A stretch of DNA of 64,000 nucleotides from Candidatus Daviesbacteria bacterium (GCA_030699125.1 JAUYKM010000009.1:6358-70357); one strand, 5' to 3'; positions 4,192 to 63,463 are shown, counted from the first letter of the stretch. Program-made: numbers and translations. Notes: generated by a model from the sequence alone, not told the origin.

Positions 4192-5562
4192 TTAATCTAT
4201 ATGCTGAATTTTTTCAAGTAAATAATCTCTCTTATTCTTTGTAGAATCTTCTAAGACTTCCTCAAAAAGTTTTTGGAGGATCTCTCCCACTTTTGGGCCG
4301 GGCTTAATGTTTAAAACTTTCATCACATCATGGCCATCCACTTTTAAATCAGCAATGGAAAATGGTTTTTTCAAAACTTGTTTAATTTTTTCTTTAAATT
4401 TTTCCATCCTCCATGATGTTTCTCTCTGTGTTCCTCCACCTAATCTATCACCAACTCGAAGAGCCATCATATCTTCGATATTTTCCAACCTCACATTTTT
4501 TATAAAACGCCTGATGGCAGAATCTGTTTGATCTTCATTAACAGAAAACATATGCCACCTGATTAATCTATAGAGCTTTTCAGTTTGTTTTTTAGATAGA
4601 TTAAATCTTTTGGCAATCTTCCTAGCTATATTTGCGCCCACCACATCATGTTGATAGAATGTGACATTGCCATCCTCTTGAGTGGAGACTGTATCAGGTT
4701 TACCAACATCATGGAGCAAGGCGGCAAATTTGGTAAGAGGATCATCTGATGGAGCATATTTGAGAGTAAGTAGGGAGTGTTCGCCAATATCATAGACTCT
4801 GTCATGTTTTGGTCCCTCCTGTTTAAGACCAAAACACCCCTCAAGTTCCGGCAAAATAATTTGCAGTATCCCCGCCTCCCTAAGTTTAACTATACCTATG
4901 TATGAACTGCTAGATGCAAGAATCTTGAAAAGTTCATCCCTGACTCTTTCATTGGCGATTTCTTTTAAAAGATGGGCATTTTTTGTGATAGCTGCAAAAG
5001 TTTTTTTCTCTATATCAAAACCCAATTCTGTGGCAAATCGAATGGCACGAATAAGACGTAGGGCATCTTCTTGGAACCTTTTCTGTGGATCACCCACAGC
5101 TCTAATGATTTTGTCTTTAATATCATCTTGACCATGGAATGGATCAGTTAATTGGATCCCCCGATTAAATCGGGGGATGACAGAGGCGGCAATGGCATTA
5201 ATAGTAAAATCCCTGCGAGCTAAATCTTCCTCAATATTATCTGTCCAGGAAAGCTTATCCGGATGACGGTGATCTTTATATATTCCCTCTTTTCTCATGG
5301 TGGTGATTTCAAAAATTCCATCACCACTATCAAACCCAACTGTACCAAACTTATTATCATAAAATCCCTCAGGAATCACTTTTAAAATCTCCTCCGGTTT
5401 TGCATCAGTGGTAAAATCCCAGTCCTTGACCTGCTTTTTCGTTAAAAGATCTCGGACTGCCCCTCCCACTATGTAAATTTGAAAGTTGGCTTTTTGAAAT
5501 TTATCTAAAATATTTTTTACTCTGGAAGGTAGTGTATAATCGTTCATGATTTCATCATTCAC
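4192..5562 (-). CDS. cca: CCA tRNA nucleotidyltransferase (polymerase beta-type head plus HD domain)
   Basis: IVGGAVRDLLTKK..DWDFTT nucleotidyltransferase head, RRDFTINA motif and a downstream HD-domain LHDVGKP. Confidence 0.85.
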   Translation of the reverse strand: MNDEIMNDYTLPSRVKNILDKFQKANFQIYIVGGAVRDLLTKKQVKDWDFTTDAKPEEILKVIPEGFYDNKFGTVGFDSGDGIFEITTMRKEGIYKDHRHPDKLSWTDNIEEDLARRDFTINAIAASVIPRFNRGIQLTDPFHGQDDIKDKIIRAVGDPQKRFQEDALRLIRAIRFATELGFDIEKKTFAAITKNAHLLKEIANERVRDELFKILASSSSYIGIVKLREAGILQIILPELEGCFGLKQEGPKHDRVYDIGEHSLLTLKYAPSDDPLTKFAALLHDVGKPDTVSTQEDGNVTFYQHDVVGANIARKIAKRFNLSKKQTEKLYRLIRWHMFSVNEDQTDSAIRRFIKNVRLENIEDMMALRVGDRLGGGTQRETSWRMEKFKEKIKQVLKKPFSIADLKVDGHDVMKVLNIKPGPKVGEILQKLFEEVLEDSTKNKRDYLLEKIQHID

Positions 5563-5617
5563 TTCTTGTAACGCGTTGCGTTATAATCGTTCATGTTGTA
5601 ATTGTATCTTTAAGTGT

Positions 5618-7222
5618 ATGAAATGGAAAGTATTACCCAAAAAGTCCGATGATTTAGTGGAGCAGTTACTGGCAAACAGGGGAATTAAAACTACTCAAGA
5701 AAAAGAGCAATTTTTTCATCCCAAAATTTCAGATTACGAGAAGGATATTGATATTGCCGGAATAAAAAAGGCACAGGAAAGAATAAAAAAAGCAATAAAA
5801 AATAATGAACTAATTATTGTTTATGGAGATTATGATGTAGATGGAATATGCGGCTGCGCTTGTCTTTATAAAGCACTAACTTCAATTGGAGCAAAAGTTT
5901 TGCCTTATATTCCACATAGAGAAAAAGAAGGATATGGATTATCAAAAATAGGATTGGAGTCGGCTAAAAATTCTGGCGCCCGGTTAATAATAACTGTTGA
6001 TAATGGCATAGTTGCCAATCCTCAAGCAGACTATGCAAAAATTTTAGGCCTGGATTTAATTATTACTGATCACCATATTCCGGCAAAAATTAAACCGGAC
6101 GCTTATGAAATAATTCATTCTACCAAGATGTGTGGAGCCGCTGTTGGTTGGTGTCTTATCCGAGGATTAATAAAAAAGGATTTGGCAACAGAATTGTTGC
6201 AATTTGTTTGCCTTGCCACCATCTGTGATGTGATGCTTCTTTTGGAAGTTAATAGAGCATATGTTTCGGAAGGTTTGAAAATTTTAAACCGGACAACTAA
6301 TTTAGGATTATTATCTTTAATCAATGAATCAGGATTAAGACTTGGGAATATTGGTTCTTATGAGATAGGTCACGTTTTAGGGCCAAGATTGAATGCTATG
6401 GGAAGATTGGAAAATGCCATGGATTCATTAAGACTTCTTTGCACCAAAGATCCTCAAAGGGCCAGAAATTTGGCAAGACTTTTGTGTAAGACTAATACCA
6501 GTCGCCAAAAAATGACCGAAGAAGCAGTTGAAGAAGCACATGTTTTAGTGAATAAAGGAATCAGTGTACAGGTATTACATTCTAAAAAATGGTCCATGGG
6601 AATTGTGGGACTGATTGCTGGAAGAATTGCCGAAAGCTACTCTCGTCCTACCATAGCAATTTCAGTGGGAGAAACTGTTGCTAAGGGATCAGCCAGATCT
6701 GTTAATGGAGTAAATATAGTTGAGTTTATCAGAAATTTTTCCGATATTTTAATTGATGTGGGAGGGCATCCGCAAGCTGCTGGTTTTTCGCTGGAGTCTA
6801 AAAATGTGACAATCTTTAAAAGAAGAGTAGAAGAATATATTTTGGAATTACCTGAAGAAGGAGAAAAAGTTTTAGAAATAGATGCAGAAGTTGAAACTAA
6901 ACAAATTAGTAAGGGTTTAATTGAACAGATATCTAAGTTTGAACCATTTGGTGTTAAAAATCCTAGGCCCATTTTTGCAACTTATAAAATGCAAATTTCA
7001 GATATTAGAACAGTAGGATTGGGGAAACATCTAAAGTTTAAAGCGAATAATATAGACGCTATTGCCTTTGGCATGGGGGAGATGGAATCGCTACTGGCTA
7101 ATGGGCAGCAAATTCACCCTGAGCGAAGTCGAAGGGTAGATTTGGCTTATACACCAGAAATTGATAGTTACAATGATTTTGAAAAACTACAACTAAAAGT
7201 AAAGGATATTCGCATTAGTTAA
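5618..7222 (+). CDS. recJ: Single-stranded-DNA-specific exonuclease RecJ (DHH/DHHA1)
   Basis: DHH motifs YGDYDVDG and ITDHH, plus a DHHA1 GGH motif. The track ORF starts at 5546 and overlaps cca, so I prefer the internal start MKWKVLPKK at 5618. Confidence 0.8.
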   Translation: MKWKVLPKKSDDLVEQLLANRGIKTTQEKEQFFHPKISDYEKDIDIAGIKKAQERIKKAIKNNELIIVYGDYDVDGICGCACLYKALTSIGAKVLPYIPHREKEGYGLSKIGLESAKNSGARLIITVDNGIVANPQADYAKILGLDLIITDHHIPAKIKPDAYEIIHSTKMCGAAVGWCLIRGLIKKDLATELLQFVCLATICDVMLLLEVNRAYVSEGLKILNRTTNLGLLSLINESGLRLGNIGSYEIGHVLGPRLNAMGRLENAMDSLRLLCTKDPQRARNLARLLCKTNTSRQKMTEEAVEEAHVLVNKGISVQVLHSKKWSMGIVGLIAGRIAESYSRPTIAISVGETVAKGSARSVNGVNIVEFIRNFSDILIDVGGHPQAAGFSLESKNVTIFKRRVEEYILELPEEGEKVLEIDAEVETKQISKGLIEQISKFEPFGVKNPRPIFATYKMQISDIRTVGLGKHLKFKANNIDAIAFGMGEMESLLANGQQIHPERSRRVDLAYTPEIDSYNDFEKLQLKVKDIRIS

Positions 7223-33721: not shown

Positions 33722-33784
33722 TGTACATCCATTGTAAACAACTCTTCAATTGTTAAATAGATGGAAAATGTGTACCATTAAGTT

Positions 33785-34060
33785 ATGGAAGAAGAAGTAC
33801 AACCCAAGCCAATTTTTCTGCCGGTTATTTCTGATGAGACCAGGCAATATCTTTTAGAAGAACTCGGATTGGATAAAGATGAAAAGACCCGACAGATAGT
33901 CTCCAGTCTAACCGGCGAAAGAGGTGTAAACCCTTATATGGCCATAGATGATTGGATGATGTCGGTATTCAGTAGACTGGCTGATTACAATAAAGCATTT
34001 GTGGAGATTCTAAGTTCAGTATTAGAAAAAAGATATGTGAATGTTAATGGGGGGGGGTGA
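33785..34060 (+). CDS. Hypothetical protein; may be the 5' part of a gene split at a G9 tract
   Basis: Ends VNGGG* inside GGGGGGGGG (34049-34057). Confidence 0.35.
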   Translation: MEEEVQPKPIFLPVISDETRQYLLEELGLDKDEKTRQIVSSLTGERGVNPYMAIDDWMMSVFSRLADYNKAFVEILSSVLEKRYVNVNGGG

Positions 34061-34458
34061 TAGGTGATTATGCAGACGCAGCTTCAAAAGGGATGGCAGT
34101 TGTCGTACAAGCTTATCAGATTGACAGCGGCAGAAACTTATTTTCCCGAGTACAAGATTTAAGTGAGGAAGATCTGTCTGAAATGGGAAAAATTATGGAA
34201 GAGGTTATCCTACCAACTAACACAGATGTATCTCTTCTGAGGCGTGTCCTAAGCACTCCCAGAATTCCTGAACAGCATCTAAATTTGATATATTGTGTTA
34301 ATAAAACTGCAGAAGGAGCAATAGCCTTAGATGATAGAGAATTCAAAGAGGGAGCAGCGGCTATGTTCAGAATACTTTCTTACTTAGCCCCAAAACTATA
34401 CCCAAATCCTTCACAAACTCCGGAGCAACCTCTACCGCCTCCCTCAACAAATCCATAA
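34057..34458 (+). CDS. Hypothetical protein; may be the 3' part of a gene split at a G9 tract
   Basis: GTG start inside the G-run. Frame offset relative to the upstream ORF. Confidence 0.35.
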   Translation: MIGDYADAASKGMAVVVQAYQIDSGRNLFSRVQDLSEEDLSEMGKIMEEVILPTNTDVSLLRRVLSTPRIPEQHLNLIYCVNKTAEGAIALDDREFKEGAAAMFRILSYLAPKLYPNPSQTPEQPLPPPSTNP

Positions 34459-34561
34459 AACGAACTATCCAACATGGGAGGTTGATTAGGTTGACACCTA
34501 GGGAAAATTTTACTACCATTTTCTTATTGACTCTTGAAGGGGACGGTCCTGAGGTTTATTG

Positions 34562-35236
34562 TTATATCAATCTAAACTTAGCATTCTTTTTATATCTTCT
34601 TCTCAAATATTTCTTTTGGGCTCTGGTTGAAAATTTATTCGTTCCCAAAACCGCCTCTTCCTTTTCAAATAATTTTTCAATTTCTGAGAAATCTTGTTTA
34701 AGCCCATCATAAATAAATTTTTCATATTGTTTTTGCGACTTTTTTGTTTCTCCAACCAGACGGATGATATCTTCATCAAGGAAATAAAGCGATTCTTGAC
34801 CCACAGCCTCTCTGATACTGCTATATGGATATTTCATTGGGTCCTTAATTAGCCCTGCTTTGACTGGATTGAGATAAATGTATTGAGAAAGCTGGATAAA
34901 ATAAGGATCGCTTTCAATTAGAATACTTTTAAACCTATTTTGAAAAACAGGACCATAGTGATTATAAGTACGGTTAAAATACATGGAATAACTGGTTGTT
35001 AGGGAGGACATAATTTTTGAGATGGGGATTTTACGAGTATGGATAGAGATATGAAAGTGGTTTGGTATCAGACAAAAAGCGTATATGGAATGGTCATATT
35101 TACTTTTTAAACGATAAAGCTTATTTAAGAAAAAATGATAATCTGCCTCTTTTAGAAATACAGGCTGCTTATTAATACCCCTATTAAAAACATGATAAAA
35201 AGCATTTTCAAAAACAAATCTTGGCCCTCTAGGCAT
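34562..35236 (-). CDS. Y1 HUH tyrosine transposase, IS200/IS605 TnpA-like or REP-associated (RAYT)
   Basis: HUH motif NHFHISI and catalytic Tyr in YIYLNP. Flanked by inverted GGGACGGTCC hairpin repeats at 34529-34553 and 35283-35300. Confidence 0.7.
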   Translation of the reverse strand: MPRGPRFVFENAFYHVFNRGINKQPVFLKEADYHFFLNKLYRLKSKYDHSIYAFCLIPNHFHISIHTRKIPISKIMSSLTTSYSMYFNRTYNHYGPVFQNRFKSILIESDPYFIQLSQYIYLNPVKAGLIKDPMKYPYSSIREAVGQESLYFLDEDIIRLVGETKKSQKQYEKFIYDGLKQDFSEIEKLFEKEEAVLGTNKFSTRAQKKYLRRRYKKNAKFRLI

Positions 35237-35337
35237 TAAATAAACTATGACATTTTTAGGTTGCTATGCCAAGCTTTATGAGGACCGTCCCTAAGCGATA
35301 TTGCGCTCAGTATGTATGATATGTGTAGAATGGTATA

Positions 35338-36108
35338 GTGAATATTTTTGAAGTGCTGGCTCATGAAGGGGAAGAAGTTGTCGAGGTAGTTGTTCTCAGA
35401 CTGGATGAGGTTATCCGTACTAACTCCATCAACTATACTATCTGGGCTTTTGTGGCTCTGGCTGCTTTGACTTTTTTATCAATTATCTTAAAAAGATGGC
35501 CCTCTTTGAGGATTTTTTTATTTTTAGGCTTTATTCTGGTAATTCTTGGCAATACTCTTTACTTAATTGGTTCCACTCTTTATTTAAATAAGGAGTCTCA
35601 GAGCGGCGGTCCTGTTCACTATCATGCAGATTTTGAAATATATAGATGTGGACAGAAAATTGATTTGAAGGATCCTGAAGGATTATCCAATAAAGTAGGT
35701 ACCAATGTTATTCATGAGCATGGAGATGACAGGATTCACATAGAAGGAGTGCTTTTGGATAAACATGATGCCTCTTTAGGTCATTTTTTTGCAGAATTGG
35801 GGGGGAGTATGGATGGGAATCATCTTACTGTATCAACTAACAAAAGTCTTCTGACTTTACAAAATGGAGACTTATGCAACGGCCGGCCGGCGCTCTTCCA
35901 AGTTTTTGTTTATCAAACCAAAGGTGAACGTTATTTCCAGCAAAAAATAACTGAAAACCCGGAAGATTATATTATTTCTCCTGAGGGTAACATTCCACCG
36001 GGTGATTGTGTAATTTTAGAATTAGATGCTCTTAAAGACAGAACAGATAAATTGTGTGAACAATACTTATTAAAGAAGGAGACTGGAGAAATTAACAATG
36101 GGAATTGA
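35338..36108 (+). CDS. His-rich membrane-anchored protein, possible metal-binding protein
   Basis: Two TM, then HYHADFEIYRCG...HEHGDDRIHIEG. Confidence 0.4.
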   Translation: MNIFEVLAHEGEEVVEVVVLRLDEVIRTNSINYTIWAFVALAALTFLSIILKRWPSLRIFLFLGFILVILGNTLYLIGSTLYLNKESQSGGPVHYHADFEIYRCGQKIDLKDPEGLSNKVGTNVIHEHGDDRIHIEGVLLDKHDASLGHFFAELGGSMDGNHLTVSTNKSLLTLQNGDLCNGRPALFQVFVYQTKGERYFQQKITENPEDYIISPEGNIPPGDCVILELDALKDRTDKLCEQYLLKKETGEINNGN

Positions 36109-46083: not shown

Positions 46084-46527
46084 ATGCATTGTCCTTTTTG
46101 TGCAAGTGTCCTATCTAAGGTGGTTGATAAACGGGGAGTCGAGGGTCGTGGGGAAATCAGAAGAAGGAGAGAGTGTTTAAAATGTGGTAGACGATTTACC
46201 ACTTATGAAGCTCTGGCTAGTTTAGAGATGATGGTTATTAAAAAGGATGGTAAAAGAGAACTGTTTGTGGCAGATAAGTTAAGGTTGGGACTGATTAAAG
46301 CATTAGAAAAGAGACCAGGTATTGAAAAAACTTCACAAATTGTAAATAAAATAGAGGTGAGAATTAGGACTAGAGGTTTGAAGGAAATTCAATCACAAGT
46401 TTTGGGTAGATGGGTTTTGGCGGAGTTGAGAAAAATAGATCAGGTGGCTTATTTGCGTTTTGCCTCGGTTTACAGAACATTTTCCGGACCGGGGGATTTC
46501 AGAAAAGAACTGGAGGCATTAAGTTAA
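46084..46527 (+). CDS. nrdR: Transcriptional repressor NrdR
   Basis: MHCPFCAS...CLKCGRRF zinc ribbon followed by an ATP-cone. Directly upstream of the RNR. Confidence 0.8.
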   Translation: MHCPFCASVLSKVVDKRGVEGRGEIRRRRECLKCGRRFTTYEALASLEMMVIKKDGKRELFVADKLRLGLIKALEKRPGIEKTSQIVNKIEVRIRTRGLKEIQSQVLGRWVLAELRKIDQVAYLRFASVYRTFSGPGDFRKELEALS

Positions 46528-46532
46528 ATCTT

Positions 46533-49199
46533 ATGAAAAAAACAAAAACCAGACAAAACAAACCAATCTTACAAATTATGGCCATGCCAAAAAGGTTTGG
46601 CAGGAAAAAAACTAATGGTGAACATAAAACTAATGGTCACGGGGTAGACGGCAGAGGATTTGAAGACAGATTCATTCCCAGGTATAAAAAAATGCCCCCA
46701 GTGCCCAAAGATTTGCCTGTTCCTACTTTTTCCGAATCATCCAATAAAATTTTACAGGAGAGATATCTTCTTAAAGGCGGGGATCTTAAGGTGGTAGAGA
46801 GTATCTCTGATCGGTTTTGGCATATTGCCTATGATATTGCCTCGGGAGATTTTGATTTTGGCTATAGTGAGAGTGAAGTTTATAAAAATGCTTTGGAATT
46901 TTATACCATGATGGTCAGGCAACAGTTCCTGCCCAATTCCCCCACCATTATGAATGCAGGTAAACAAAATGGTCTGCAGTATTCTGCCTGTTTTGTACTT
47001 CCGGTGGGAGATTCTTTACCGGAAATTTTCGATTCAGTAAAGTACGCAGCATTAATCCACCAGACAGGCGGTGGAACCGGATTTGCCTTTTCCCGCCTTA
47101 GACCTGCTGGCTCAGTAGTCCGCACCACCGGCGGAGTGGCTTCCGGGCCGGTATCTTTTTTACGGGTCTTTAATGCTGCCACTGAATCTATCAAACAGGG
47201 CGGTACCAGGAGAGGTGCTAATATGGGGATTTTAAGAATTGATCATCCTGATATTCTGGAATTTATCAGATGCAAAGCAGAGTTGGATGATATGAATAGG
47301 CCGGTTTTTGAAAAAATTGCTCCGCTTTTGCCTGATGATAAGGCCAAAAAATATTTTAAAACCATGCTTTTAGATAAGCAGATCTCCAACTTTAATATCT
47401 CCTGTGCAGTTACAGAAAAATTTATGGAGGCTTTGGAGGCAGGCGAAAATTATGACTTGATCGATCCTCACTCAGGCGAGGTGGTGGGGCAATTAAATGC
47501 CAAAGAGGTTTTTGATGAAATAGTGGAGAGAGCCTGGTCTACCGGTGATCCGGGATTAATTTTTATAGACAGAATTAATGATTCTCCGGCCAATCCGGTG
47601 CCCAAATTAGAAACTATTGAGAGTACCAATCCTTGTGGCGAGCAGCCTTTGGCTCCCTGGGATGCCTGTAATTTGGGTTCCGTTAATTTAGGTAAGTTTG
47701 TCCGCCAGCTGGCGGATGGCAGCTCTGATGTGGACTGGGAGGGATTGAAAGAGGTAACTCGCAAAGCAGTTCACTTTTTAGATAATGTAGTTCAGACCAA
47801 CCCTTATACTTTAAAACAAATTTATGATGAAGTTCACCAAAATAGGAGGATTGGTTTGGGGGTGATGGGTTGGGCAGATATGCTTTTCAAGCTGAAAATT
47901 CCCTATAATTCTGATCAGGCTTTGGAGTTGGCAGAAAAGGTGATGAGTTTTATCAACAATGAGGGTCACAAAATGTCAGAGGAGCTTTCGAAAGAAAAAG
48001 GATCTTTCCCTAGTTGGGCCAACTCAATTTATGCAGATTCTAAATCTTCTGCCTTTAAAAATAGAGCTTCTGTGTATGCTTATCAGGGGGGAAAACCGAT
48101 TAGAAATTCCACTGTCACCACCATTGCTCCTACCGGTACTATCTCCATTATCGGAGATTGTTCATCCGGAATTGAGCCTGTTTTTGCTCTTGCCTATATT
48201 CATAGGGCAAAATCAGTGGGGGATCAGTACAGGGTTTTGACCATTGCCAATGAGACTTTTGAGGAGATTGCCAAAGAAAAGGGTTTTTATTCTCCAGATT
48301 TGGCCCAAAAAGTTTTAGAACACGGTTCTGTAACAGGGTTATCGGAGGTGCCGGATGAGTGGCAAAAAGTTTTTATTACTGCACCGGAGATTGACCCGAT
48401 CACACATGTTAAAATGCAAGCCATCTTTCAAAAACATACAGATAATGGAGTCTCTAAAACTATTAATCTGCCTAACTCTTCTACGGTTGATGACGTGAGA
48501 ACTGCTTATTTGATGTCTTATCAGACCGGCTGTAATGGTATCACCATCTATAGGGATGGTTCCAAAAGTACCCAAGTTTTAAATGTCTCATCTACTTTGG
48601 AAAAGAAACAGACGGAGGAGTCAGCAGAAGCGGCACCAATTGCCCAAAGGCCCATGATACTTCGGGGCAGAACTTATAAAGTGGCAACACCTGTGGGTGA
48701 GGCGTATATTACCATTAACAGAGATGAAAACGAACAGCCCTTTGAAGTCTTTGTGACTGTGGGTAAGGGCGGGATGCATACTATGGCAGATGCGGAAGCC
48801 ATGGGAAGACTGGTTTCTCTTTCTTTAAGGCTAGGTAGAAATGGCGGATCAACTGATCCTCGGGAGGTGGCTCAAAAGATTGCTTCTCAGCTGAAAGGAA
48901 TTGGCGGAGCTTCATCTGTAGGATTTGGGAAAAATAGGGTGATGAGTTTGGCTGATGCTATTGCTAAGGTGTTGGCTGAGGATTTGGCAGTTTCTGCTGA
49001 TGTAGAAGTGGTGGAACAAGTGCCCTTAAATCTGACTAATGGAGAAGCCAAAGAGGTTAATTCTGAGTCTGTTTCTGATCCGGCTACCAATTACCAACTA
49101 GCTACTAATGTAGATTTATGTCCGGAGTGCGGTTCAGCCTCATTTGTGATGGAAGAAGGCTGTAAAAAATGCCACTCCTGCGGATATTCCATGTGTTAG
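46533..49199 (+). CDS. nrdJ: Class II (adenosylcobalamin-dependent) ribonucleoside-triphosphate/diphosphate reductase
   Basis: TNPCGEQPL active-site motif and a C-terminal Cys-rich zinc ribbon. The track ORF starts at 46410 inside nrdR, so the ATG at 46533 is preferred. Confidence 0.85.
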   Translation: MKKTKTRQNKPILQIMAMPKRFGRKKTNGEHKTNGHGVDGRGFEDRFIPRYKKMPPVPKDLPVPTFSESSNKILQERYLLKGGDLKVVESISDRFWHIAYDIASGDFDFGYSESEVYKNALEFYTMMVRQQFLPNSPTIMNAGKQNGLQYSACFVLPVGDSLPEIFDSVKYAALIHQTGGGTGFAFSRLRPAGSVVRTTGGVASGPVSFLRVFNAATESIKQGGTRRGANMGILRIDHPDILEFIRCKAELDDMNRPVFEKIAPLLPDDKAKKYFKTMLLDKQISNFNISCAVTEKFMEALEAGENYDLIDPHSGEVVGQLNAKEVFDEIVERAWSTGDPGLIFIDRINDSPANPVPKLETIESTNPCGEQPLAPWDACNLGSVNLGKFVRQLADGSSDVDWEGLKEVTRKAVHFLDNVVQTNPYTLKQIYDEVHQNRRIGLGVMGWADMLFKLKIPYNSDQALELAEKVMSFINNEGHKMSEELSKEKGSFPSWANSIYADSKSSAFKNRASVYAYQGGKPIRNSTVTTIAPTGTISIIGDCSSGIEPVFALAYIHRAKSVGDQYRVLTIANETFEEIAKEKGFYSPDLAQKVLEHGSVTGLSEVPDEWQKVFITAPEIDPITHVKMQAIFQKHTDNGVSKTINLPNSSTVDDVRTAYLMSYQTGCNGITIYRDGSKSTQVLNVSSTLEKKQTEESAEAAPIAQRPMILRGRTYKVATPVGEAYITINRDENEQPFEVFVTVGKGGMHTMADAEAMGRLVSLSLRLGRNGGSTDPREVAQKIASQLKGIGGASSVGFGKNRVMSLADAIAKVLAEDLAVSADVEVVEQVPLNLTNGEAKEVNSESVSDPATNYQLATNVDLCPECGSASFVMEEGCKKCHSCGYSMC

Positions 49200-49618: not shown

Positions 49619-49737
49619 AAATACCTGCTGATTTATATGTTAAAATCTTCTCGTGGATTCTAAAAAAGGATTAATGATTATATCTATTGATGAAGAGAAG
49701 AGGAAGATAACGGTTGTTTGAGCCTTAAGAAAACCAA

Positions 49738-50508
49738 ATATCCGCAGGTGTCAATACAGATACACCCCAAGGGTGTACATACAATATAAACTTTACTCCT
49801 CCTCCAACAACTGATGTTTTATTAGTTCTAACTTTTGGGCGTATTCCACACGTTCAAGAACAAATTCCTTATAATCTTCGGGGGATTTAAAAAAATTTAG
49901 GATTTCTTCTTTAGCGCAAAAGCCATCTTTTACCAGTCCAACATATTCCGGATATGAAGACCAACGATAATCTTTTAAATCCTTCACTAGAAGTGATGCA
50001 ATCGGGTTTAAGTGAATATAACGTGAGACATGAATTAACTGTTCATCAGATTCAATTAAAACAGCTTTGAATTCCCCCTGTAATAAAGGCCCAACTCTTC
50101 TGTACTTAACATTGTAGTATTTGGTATAGCTATTGCTAAGTTTACTGATAAATTCAGTAATTCCGCCATCTTTAAGTTGTCTAATAAGAAGATGGAAATG
50201 GTTTGGCATTAGACAATAGCAGATAATGTCCACGATTTTTTTGTTTGAATCGGGTTTAATAATAGAATTTGGTGAGAATCTGGAGAATCTTGGCTTGGGT
50301 CCTAATAATTGGTAATAGGTGATCGTCTTAATAAATCTTGAATAATCCCAATTTTTTTCAAATATTCTTCTTTTCTCTACACCTCGGTTATAAATATGGT
50401 AAAAATGACCGTTAACAAATGGAAAAATTCTGGAAGGCATTTGAACCTATCGTACTCTCAATATCCGCAGGTGTCAATACAAAAACACCCCAAGGGTGTA
50501 CATACAAT
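49738..50508 (-). mobile_element. IS200/IS605-like element: a Y1 transposase flanked by 48-bp near-identical direct subterminal repeats carrying a GTACACCC-AA-GGGTGTAC hairpin
   Basis: Repeats at 49738-49785 and 50461-50508 differ at 3 positions. Same-strand hairpins at both ends fit the IS200/IS605 LE/RE architecture. Confidence 0.6.
49793..50440 (-). CDS. Y1 HUH tyrosine transposase (IS200/IS605 TnpA or RAYT-like)
   Basis: HUH motif NHFHLLI and catalytic Tyr in YIHLNP. Paralog of the 34562..35236 gene. Confidence 0.7.
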   Translation of the reverse strand: MPSRIFPFVNGHFYHIYNRGVEKRRIFEKNWDYSRFIKTITYYQLLGPKPRFSRFSPNSIIKPDSNKKIVDIICYCLMPNHFHLLIRQLKDGGITEFISKLSNSYTKYYNVKYRRVGPLLQGEFKAVLIESDEQLIHVSRYIHLNPIASLLVKDLKDYRWSSYPEYVGLVKDGFCAKEEILNFFKSPEDYKEFVLERVEYAQKLELIKHQLLEEE

Positions 50509-56047: not shown

Positions 56048-56119
56048 GTCATTCCCGCGTATGCGGGAATCCAATTAACAGATTTTATTAAATGGATCCC
56101 TGCCTTCGCAGGGATGACA
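56048..56119 (+). mobile_element. Cargo-less MITE-like element: two family-B hairpins in inverted orientation (GTCATTCCCGCGTATGCGGGAATCCAATTAA ... GGATCCCTGCCTTCGCAGGGATGAC)
   Basis: Same terminal inverted repeats as those flanking the GIY-YIG gene at 63108-63463. Confidence 0.55.
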
Positions 56120-63107: not shown

Positions 63108-63463
63108 ATTAGATTATGTCATTCCTGCGAATGCAGGAATCCAATTAACAGATGTATTATTATGTCTATATTTTGGCAAGTGGAATAAATGGCACTTTGT
63201 ATATAGGTGTTACAGATAATTTAGTCAGAAGGGTTTGGGAACATAAACATGATTTGGTAGAAGGATTTACCAAAAAGTACGATATACATGATCTTGTATA
63301 TTATGGGCAACACCAAGACATTAATGAGGCCATTTTAAGAGAAAAACAAATGAAGAAGTGGAAAAGATATTGGAAAATAAAACTGATTAATAAGATGAAT
63401 CCAAAATGGAAAGATTTATATATTTCTATTGTTTAATTGGATCCCCGCCTACGCGGGGATGAC
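63108..63463 (+). mobile_element. 356-bp element with terminal inverted repeats carrying a GIY-YIG nuclease gene as cargo
   Basis: Left end GTCATTCCTGCGAATGCAGGAATCCAATTAA. Right end TTAATTGGATCCCCGCCTACGCGGGGATGAC. Each end is itself a hairpin. A cargo-less copy lies at 56048-56119. Confidence 0.55.
63152..63436 (+). CDS. GIY-YIG nuclease family protein (YhbQ/UPF0213-like)
   Basis: YYVYILASGINGTLYIGVTDNLVRRVWEHK is a GIY-YIG core. 94 aa. Confidence 0.75.
   Translation: MYYYVYILASGINGTLYIGVTDNLVRRVWEHKHDLVEGFTKKYDIHDLVYYGQHQDINEAILREKQMKKWKRYWKIKLINKMNPKWKDLYISIV

Follow-up and report, generated by a model that had tools for sequence, protein, structure and literature searches.

Genes resembling those of REP-associated tyrosine transposases (RAYTs; REP, repetitive extragenic palindrome) and lying between terminal inverted repeats (TIRs), which often contain the motif GGGGWSAS, were described as TIRYTs (Di Nocera et al. 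2013, PMC3733652). Quentin et al. (2018, PMC6006769) equated the TIRYTs with subclass 2.1 of the TnpAY1 proteins, for which they gave the signature NH[YF]H, FQ, Y[IV]HLNP, and a proximal SS (their Table 1) and which was reported as having no REP association; RAYT Group 1 is the same class (Bertels et al. 2017, PMC5581495). We analyzed a 64-kb stretch of DNA from a Candidatus Daviesbacteria bacterium, hereafter the window, in which a gene at 34562..35236 on the minus strand encodes a Y1 protein with an HUH motif. Because the protein is of the subclass 2.1 type and TIRs are present at both ends of the unit, we read the locus, from its sequence and the predicted fold of its product, as a TIRtron, a short representative of a known kind of element in a lineage new to that kind; we put the probability of this reading at roughly three in four. 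Orthologous loci were taken from metagenomes and from contigs encoding named homologs, and loci from relatives carry L-numbers (L003, L084, L131, and so on).

The region 34200-35700 contained a single long open reading frame (ORF), 34562..35236 (-), which was intact and encoded 224 amino acids. The product was identical to the database entry 'transposase [Candidatus Daviesbacteria bacterium]' and was, as the original prediction had stated, a Y1 HUH protein: the HUH motif was NHFH (residues 59-62, with H60 and H62), the catalytic tyrosine was Y119 within the motif YIYLNP, and the Pfam family Y1_Tnp (PF01797) matched with 44.2 bits (cutoff 23 bits). Together with two further motifs, GPVFQ and S139-S140, all positions fitted the subclass 2.1 signature, YIYLNP with one substitution. 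The C-terminus was helical and ended in a conserved basic helix (KKYLRRRxKK). The AlphaFold2 model (predicted local distance difference test score 82.5) and Foldseek predicted a TnpA-like α/β fold; the best structural match was E. coli TnpA-REP (4ER8; E 1.4e-7, template modeling score 0.74 on the target), followed by the TnpAs of IS608, IS200, and ISDra2 at ~1e-4, all with probability 1.00. The same E. coli protein was the sole match when the PDB was searched by sequence. Among the NCBIfam models, the only one to match was REP_Tyr_transpos (NF047646), with 68.6 bits, which lies under the 80-bit equivalog cutoff.

A search of 1.84 billion representatives retrieved 31,383 relatives of the window protein. 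Hundreds of relatives with 72-81% amino-acid identity were found in Daviesbacteria, Levybacteria, Curtissbacteria, and other Microgenomates. The nearest long relatives (35-39% identity, ~320 amino acids) carried Y1_Tnp followed by a C-terminal Bac_DnaA_C/helix-turn-helix (HTH) region at residues 222-298, and the window protein aligned only with their first ~210 residues; none of 68 family members had a Pfam match to a C-terminal HTH domain (Bac_DnaA_C, HTH_23, HTH_28) at E<=1. A neighbor-joining tree was built with the window protein, a second Y1 protein encoded in the window (paralog 2), four annotated IS200/IS605 TnpAs, E. coli RayT, two plasmid genes, and the HTH-bearing relatives. Both window paralogs grouped with the HTH-bearing relatives and the plasmid YIELNP genes in a subclass 2.1-like group, which was split from IS200 and E. 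coli RayT with a bootstrap of 0.99, and the IS200/IS605 TnpAs formed a separate clade (bootstrap 1.0), so that neither paralog clustered with canonical IS200 TnpA. Motifs, place in the tree, profile matches, and predicted fold all assign the window protein to TnpAY1 subclass 2.1 (TIRYT, RAYT Group 1), of which it is a short form. A search of IMG/VR proteins found no viral relatives, and the lone IMG/VR match to the DNA pattern was a chance match within a coding region of 51% GC; a viral origin was rejected.

An ordinary insertion sequence (IS) of the IS200/IS605 family, moving by single-strand peel-and-paste transposition, would share part of this picture. The Pfam family is named 'Transposase IS200 like', the HUH and tyrosine motifs are intact, the site described below is filled in some relatives and empty in others, and the TnpAs of IS608, ISDra2, and IS200 share the HUH/Tyr fold and presumably the chemistry (a 5'-phosphotyrosine intermediate on single-stranded DNA) of the window protein. 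However, the IS200 models of NCBIfam gave zero matches to the window protein even at E<=10, and of 2,780 plasmid records obtained with an IS608 TnpA query, none was annotated among the protein's 43 plasmid matches (E<=1). The four annotated IS200/IS605 TnpAs had DH[IV]H and Y...Q, the motifs of TnpAY1 subclass 1.1, whereas the window protein has NHFH and, in YIYLNP, Y...NP, and their clade stood apart in the tree. The ends of the unit are inverted repeats rather than the same-strand subterminal hairpins that IS200/IS605 elements have at both ends; tnpB, which many of these elements carry, was absent; and instead of multiple near-identical copies there was one copy, the other Y1 gene of the window being just 35% identical. 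Copies of an IS are usually near-identical, and the orthologs of the window gene were saturated at synonymous sites yet under purifying selection. We therefore regard an ordinary IS200/IS605 element as very improbable.

The sequence GGGACGGTCCT was found exactly twice in the window, at 34540-34550 (+) and 35281-35291 (-), in inverted orientation and bracketing the ORF. The flank motifs had been predicted to be inverted copies, and both the coordinates and the sequence description given for them were accurate. Shuffling the two flanks produced a perfect 11-nt inverted repeat between them in 0.1-0.65% of cases. The whole unit spans 752 bp (34540..35291, -), is bounded by the two exact copies, and consists of right TIR, gene, promoter, and left TIR, a layout that was the same in all orthologous loci. 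At the left (upstream) end, the core (35281..35291, -) was invariant in 20/20 aligned left ends and formed the outermost part of an arm of ~56 nt (35236..35291, -), comprising the TIR core and the promoter region up to the ATG and scoring 45.3 bits with an nhmmer left-end profile. At the right (downstream) end, the core (34540..34550, +) reads GGGACGGTCCT on the plus strand and AGGACCGTCCC on the gene strand and was present at every ortholog right end; its arm of ~56 nt (34540..34595, +) overlaps the last 34 nt of the coding sequence and was matched with 36.6 bits by the profile made from the left ends of relatives. Beyond the core, the left and right arms were identical at 36/56 positions. 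These features describe imperfect TIRs of ~55 bp, of which the outermost 11 bp (RGGGACGGTCCT) would constitute a conserved recognition core.

In all ortholog loci with intact flanks, the 11-mer was located 51-57 nt upstream of the ATG and its reverse complement 13-42 nt past the stop codon, and the same arrangement was present even in L003, where the protein is only 50% identical. Neither end showed any variation of the 11-mer in Daviesbacteria, Levybacteria, Curtissbacteria, and other Microgenomates; beyond it the loci had no sequence in common, and identity stopped at the outer edges of the TIRs. Comparison of the window gene with its orthologs gave saturated synonymous sites (pS 0.73-0.89), a dN of 0.12-0.19, and a ratio of nonsynonymous to synonymous divergence (dN/dS) <0.06 wherever it could be estimated, and the gene is under strong purifying selection. 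Because the 11-mer stayed invariant at both ends while synonymous sites were saturated, it is under selection, and the repeat is functional. With regard to the motif of the described TIRYTs, GGGGACGG at the window right end fits 7/8 positions of GGGGWSAS, and the window left end starts with AGGGACGG; the counterparts in distant homologs were GGGGACAG, GGGGTCAG, and GGGGACTG. Among the matches listed, these distant homologs (30-40% identity) mostly lay between TIRs of their own, 13-36 nt long and with GGGGAC(N)GTCCCC-like cores.

The left end also contains a predicted sigma-70-like promoter (35244..35272, -), in which TTGGCA is followed after 17 nt by TG-CATAGT; TTGACA...CATAGT is conserved across the orthologs. 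The -10 box ends 7 nt ahead of the ATG of the window gene (35236-35249) and 6-10 nt ahead of it in the orthologs, which suggests that the mRNA is probably leaderless; the same stretch of the window contained no Shine-Dalgarno sequence.

The flank motifs had also been predicted to be hairpins, and here the result differed. The 11-mer is a quasi-palindrome with the dyad GGAC-G-GTCC. When both flanks were folded as single-stranded DNA on both strands, the energies were -0.5 to -2.7 kcal/mol, no better than those of shuffles (z -0.03 to +0.5, that is, about 0), and no significant hairpin was obtained. RNAalifold applied to 20 left ends gave only a 4-pair mini-stem (GGGA/TCCT around CGG) without covariation, and since this mini-stem is invariant, covariation offers no test of it. 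The GTAG tag that marks REP hairpins, which are imperfect palindromes of 20-40 nt, was absent from the flank repeats of the window gene. The flanks are terminal inverted repeats, not REP hairpins. A link to CGTC-tagged REPs (PMC3733652) was considered and set aside: the core has CGTC on one strand but lacks the defining 8-9-bp stem, and we treat the resemblance as coincidence.

These results bear on whether the locus could be a true REP/RAYT system (REPtron), in which the flank motifs would be REPs and the enzyme would maintain a dispersed population of REPs or REPINs, including palindromes found elsewhere in the window. The sole NCBIfam match, to REP_Tyr_transpos, speaks for such a system, as do the fold match to TnpA-REP, the inverted arrangement of the flanking repeats, which is that of REPtrons, and the gene-less derivatives in relatives, among them a mini element built as a REPIN-like inverted pair. 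Like E. coli TnpA-REP/RayT (4ER8; subclass 2.2), the window gene has a Y...NP motif and inverted flanking repeats and is a single-copy, slowly evolving gene. Unlike the E. coli system, the window locus has no REP hairpin, no GTAG tag, and, in the window, no high-copy population of REPs or bacterial interspersed mosaic elements, only the two flanking copies; its protein has an additional C-terminal region of ~80 amino acids and lies on a separate branch of the tree. The NCBIfam score below the equivalog cutoff and the reported lack of REP association in subclass 2.1 (PMC6006769) also stand against a REPtron, and we consider this explanation unlikely. Neither the label of a classical IS200 insertion sequence nor that of a REP-hairpin system fits the locus. 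The earlier description of it as more REP/RAYT-like than IS-like was thus right in placing the protein in a RAYT-related class apart from canonical IS200 TnpA, as borne out by NCBIfam, 4ER8, and the tree, and went too far insofar as it implied a REPtron, since the ends are TIRs without GTAG, the 68.6 bits are below 80, and the protein groups with TIRYT-type genes.

The window does contain a REP-like palindrome family, (AATTGG)-ATYCCYGC-N4-GCRGGRAT-(GACAG), with 4 copies of the exact pattern (0.09 expected) and one variant (5156-5178, 56051-56070, 56096-56115, 63121-63140, and 63441-63460). Two of the copies form an inverted pair 45 nt apart; the four that were checked were all intergenic, and no Y1 gene flanks any member of the family. 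It had been suggested that the two Y1 paralogs supply the mobilization machinery for such palindromes. The sequence gave no support for this proposal: the palindromes differ in sequence from the repeats of both genes and adjoin neither of them.

The chromosomal site of the element differed among relatives. At the empty sites of L123, L124, and L125, a P-type ATPase gene and a gene of 256 amino acids were only 38-50 bp apart, and in one relative with an empty site a neighboring protein was 96% identical to its window counterpart. At the same site, the window has ~1.6 kb of extra DNA, made up of two orphan ORFs (91 and 133 amino acids) and the TIRtron; this extra block starts or stops no more than 13-27 nt from the left TIR's outer end on one side and at the start of the ATPase gene on the other. 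The part between the right TIR and the ATPase gene (33722..34539, +) is variable: the empty sites lack both it and the element, and in L131 it is replaced. It holds the two orphan ORFs, which overlap (33785-34060 and 34057-34458, +) and belong to no Pfam family. Homologs of either ORF were found in none of the fetched loci, there was no other copy, and close relatives did not have them. L131 has a TIRtron at the same site as the window, with host-like divergence (~75%), and an unrelated pair of ORFs (132 and 88 amino acids) at the position of the orphan pair. The idea that the orphan ORFs are conserved cargo or a toxin-antitoxin pair was rejected in view of the missing Pfam family, the lack of copies elsewhere, and the unrelated pair in L131. 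The block has been gained or lost at a conserved site, and the DNA beside the right end of the element has been exchanged. Either an old insertion that was lost repeatedly or repeated insertion at this specific site could have produced the pattern. In other lineages the element was found in different chromosomal contexts, and between L089 and L091 an 800-bp gene indel abuts the left end. Gene-sized differences directly beside the upstream end of the Y1 gene were seen in both paralog families, in strains that are otherwise identical (L089:5141-5935 versus L091:5803-5935, and L117 versus L118 around 5050-5915).

The original prediction had left it to be seen whether the flank motif occurs in more than one genomic copy. 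In the window, each of the two Y1 genes had flank motifs unique to itself, and no further copy of the core or match to the left-end or right-end profile was found. Weak support for additional copies came from the relatives, for which ~20 kb per related genome (~250 kb in all) were covered. Four solo left ends were present (L003:507, L084:3773, L108:8727, and L108:17861), each of 50-62 nt, comprising the TIR core and the promoter, and all in the orientation of the resident gene; L131:444-593 is a gene-less mini element of 150 bp with one left and one right end. The solo ends and the mini element look like non-autonomous derivatives dependent on the single-copy gene. In this respect they recall REPINs and miniature inverted-repeat transposable elements, from which they differ in number (4 solos and 1 mini element in the ~250 kb, none in the window) and in that the solos are left ends with a promoter only. 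A function as mobile promoters of host genes was rejected for the solo left ends: only that of L084 points into a downstream gene, and those of L003 and L108 (both) point antisense into the 3' ends of genes. In L084:3773-6704 and L108:8727-10692, the full element is preceded at a distance of 1.2-2.2 kb by a solo left end that points the same way, which places host genes between two left ends (in L084 a cell-wall hydrolase-like gene and one more, in L108 a Mur ligase gene).

Just outside the TIRs, perfect tandem duplications were observed (loci L082-L131), with units of 6-17 nt in 2-3 copies that abut or overlap the first 0-7 nt of the 11-mer. They were present at 19/39 distinct junctions, or 17/37 after merging three junctions that share one event, compared with 3.4% at random positions and 5.6% at intergenic positions (p about 3e-14), which corresponds to a 9- to 14-fold enrichment at the TIR outer edges. 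Examples are L092, with two copies of CCCAAAAGGGGA followed by CGGTCC (duplications at L092:5920-5957 and 6703-6745), and the right end of L098, with two copies of GTCCCCAGGAGCCCCCC (L098:10688-10735). The solo ends and the mini element also carry such duplications. We infer that they may reflect damage or slippage provoked at protein-bound or nicked ends.

Given the low dN/dS, the 72-81% amino-acid identity kept across orders, the one copy per locus, the shared chromosomal site in the window and the distant L131, and a dyad-symmetric GGAC-N-GTCC core beside a promoter, it could be argued that the gene is a fully domesticated, immobile host gene, that the 11-mers are operator or insulator sites for a regulator, possibly the protein itself, and that the variability of the flanks is ordinary intergenic turnover. 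An operator, however, leaves unexplained the equally conserved copy past the stop codon and the similarity of the 55-bp arms, and it does not account for the solo and mini derivatives elsewhere. The different chromosomal contexts in other lineages and the tandem duplications enriched exactly at the TIR outer edges likewise argue against it. An entirely immobile gene of this kind is, in our judgment, improbable.

Several points nevertheless weigh against reading the locus as a TIRtron or limit how its traces can be used. The distal HTH domain typical of subclass 2.1 was not detected in the window protein. No second TIR copy was found in the 64-kb window, and the copy counts in relatives rest on only ~20 kb per genome. 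The element of L131 at the same site is explained equally well by insertion and by old vertical inheritance followed by loss, and assembly chimeras at the conserved repeat could be the source of some of the flank differences among metagenome contigs. The window copy has no flanking duplications, and the end points of the duplications scatter over 0-7 nt instead of falling at one position, which also rules out deriving an exact cleavage position from them.

In proteins of the HUH fold, single-stranded DNA is cleaved with the help of a metal coordinated by the HUH motif and of a tyrosine nucleophile; a 5'-phosphotyrosine link is formed, and the strands can be rejoined. To our knowledge, DNA cleavage and joining at a TIR has been shown for no TIRYT. 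For the TIRtron, we propose that the enzyme, with H60/H62, a metal ion, and Y119 as the nucleophile, would bind the TIR core RGGGACGGTCCT, which the inverted arrangement places on one strand at the left end and on the other at the right, as for the REPs beside RAYT genes, and that the DNA would be nicked and rejoined at the outer edge or slightly inside it. Occasionally, this might mobilize the unit or its ends in trans, in the way that RAYTs are believed to act on REPs, and nicking or the stalling of replication forks at bound ends could yield flanking duplications and rearrangements as by-products. The gene would then persist as a low-copy, mostly vertically inherited, largely domesticated nuclease and not as a proliferating insertion sequence. 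It is possible, and we suggest it only tentatively, that the enzyme is still acting at the TIR ends in vivo, as a long-domesticated HUH nuclease that repeatedly nicks its own 11-bp ends or stalls forks there. Such action would leave three kinds of traces, namely the solo and mini copies, a 6-17-bp duplication scar at the first 0-7 nt, and a swap hotspot for small orphan genes; the last is illustrated by the window and L131, since both hold the element at the same site beside unrelated ORF pairs.

Paralog 2 (gene 49793..50440, region 49717-50508, -) encodes 215 amino acids, is the 35% identical Y1 gene mentioned above, and belongs to the subclass 2.1-like group. Its flanks are direct and not inverted repeats: two 48-nt copies (49738-49785 and 50461-50508), each with a 7-bp hairpin (TACACCC-CAA-GGGTGTA, z -2.3) followed by TTGACACCTGCGGAT. 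The orthologs of paralog 2 keep this repeat layout, with a compensatory change in the stem (TCCACCC/GGGTGGA). The gene is syntenic in another Daviesbacteria genome, in the order ribonucleotide reductase, paralog 2, CobO, and Lon. At L131:600-660, between the CobO and ribonucleotide reductase genes, there was no gene at the position of paralog 2 and one hairpin repeat of the paralog 2 type (CCACCC-CGG-GGGTGG...TTGACAC), which resembles a scar left by excision or recombination; directly beside it is the 150-bp mini TIR element. The neighboring ribonucleotide reductase gene encodes 929 amino acids in the window (46410-49199) versus 1268 in L116:10678-14484, another Daviesbacteria genome, and the longer protein has Pfam matches to intein and LAGLIDADG families; the two therefore differ by the presence or absence of an intein.

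Compared with the described TIRYTs and TIRtrons, the window locus agrees in having a RAYT-like Y1 gene between terminal inverted repeats instead of REP hairpins, in the motifs NH[YF]H, FQ, Y[IV]xLNP, and SS, in its low copy number, and in the affinity of its protein to HTH-bearing members by profile and tree; of the GGGGWSAS motif, GGGGACGG has 7 of the 8 positions. The derivatives in relatives match the 'moderately abundant TIR families, some as dimers' of Di Nocera et al. (PMC3733652). The differences lie in the protein, which has 224 amino acids (median 238, and ~320 in the nearest long relatives) and in which Bac_DnaA_C, HTH_23, and HTH_28 are undetectable and a basic helix forms the end; in the 11-bp core, which is invariant across the window clade; and in the host, a member of the candidate phyla radiation (CPR; Microgenomates), which is not reported in three surveys (PMC3733652, PMC6006769, and PMC5581495). 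The flank duplications, the promoter-bearing solo left ends, and the empty and filled sites seen here were not found described in the same three papers.

For annotation, the analysis corrects two easy errors, the label IS200 and the assumption that the gene drives the REP-like palindromes of the window. The TIRYTs (subclass 2.1, RAYT Group 1) are the largest RAYT-related group and one without a demonstrated activity or role. The locus is a new CPR member of this known, biochemically uncharacterized kind, in which the flank scar and the natural derivatives are most worth pursuing. The CPR clade provides a clean handle on the group, with a 224-amino-acid protein, an invariant 11-bp target, a built-in promoter, natural derivatives, empty and filled sites, and a duplication scar, and with it concrete cleavage and mobilization experiments become possible. 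If the ends are indeed sites of ongoing enzyme action, they would provide the first natural trace of what TIRYTs do, and CPR bacteria would have in them a dedicated source of local plasticity for their small genomes.

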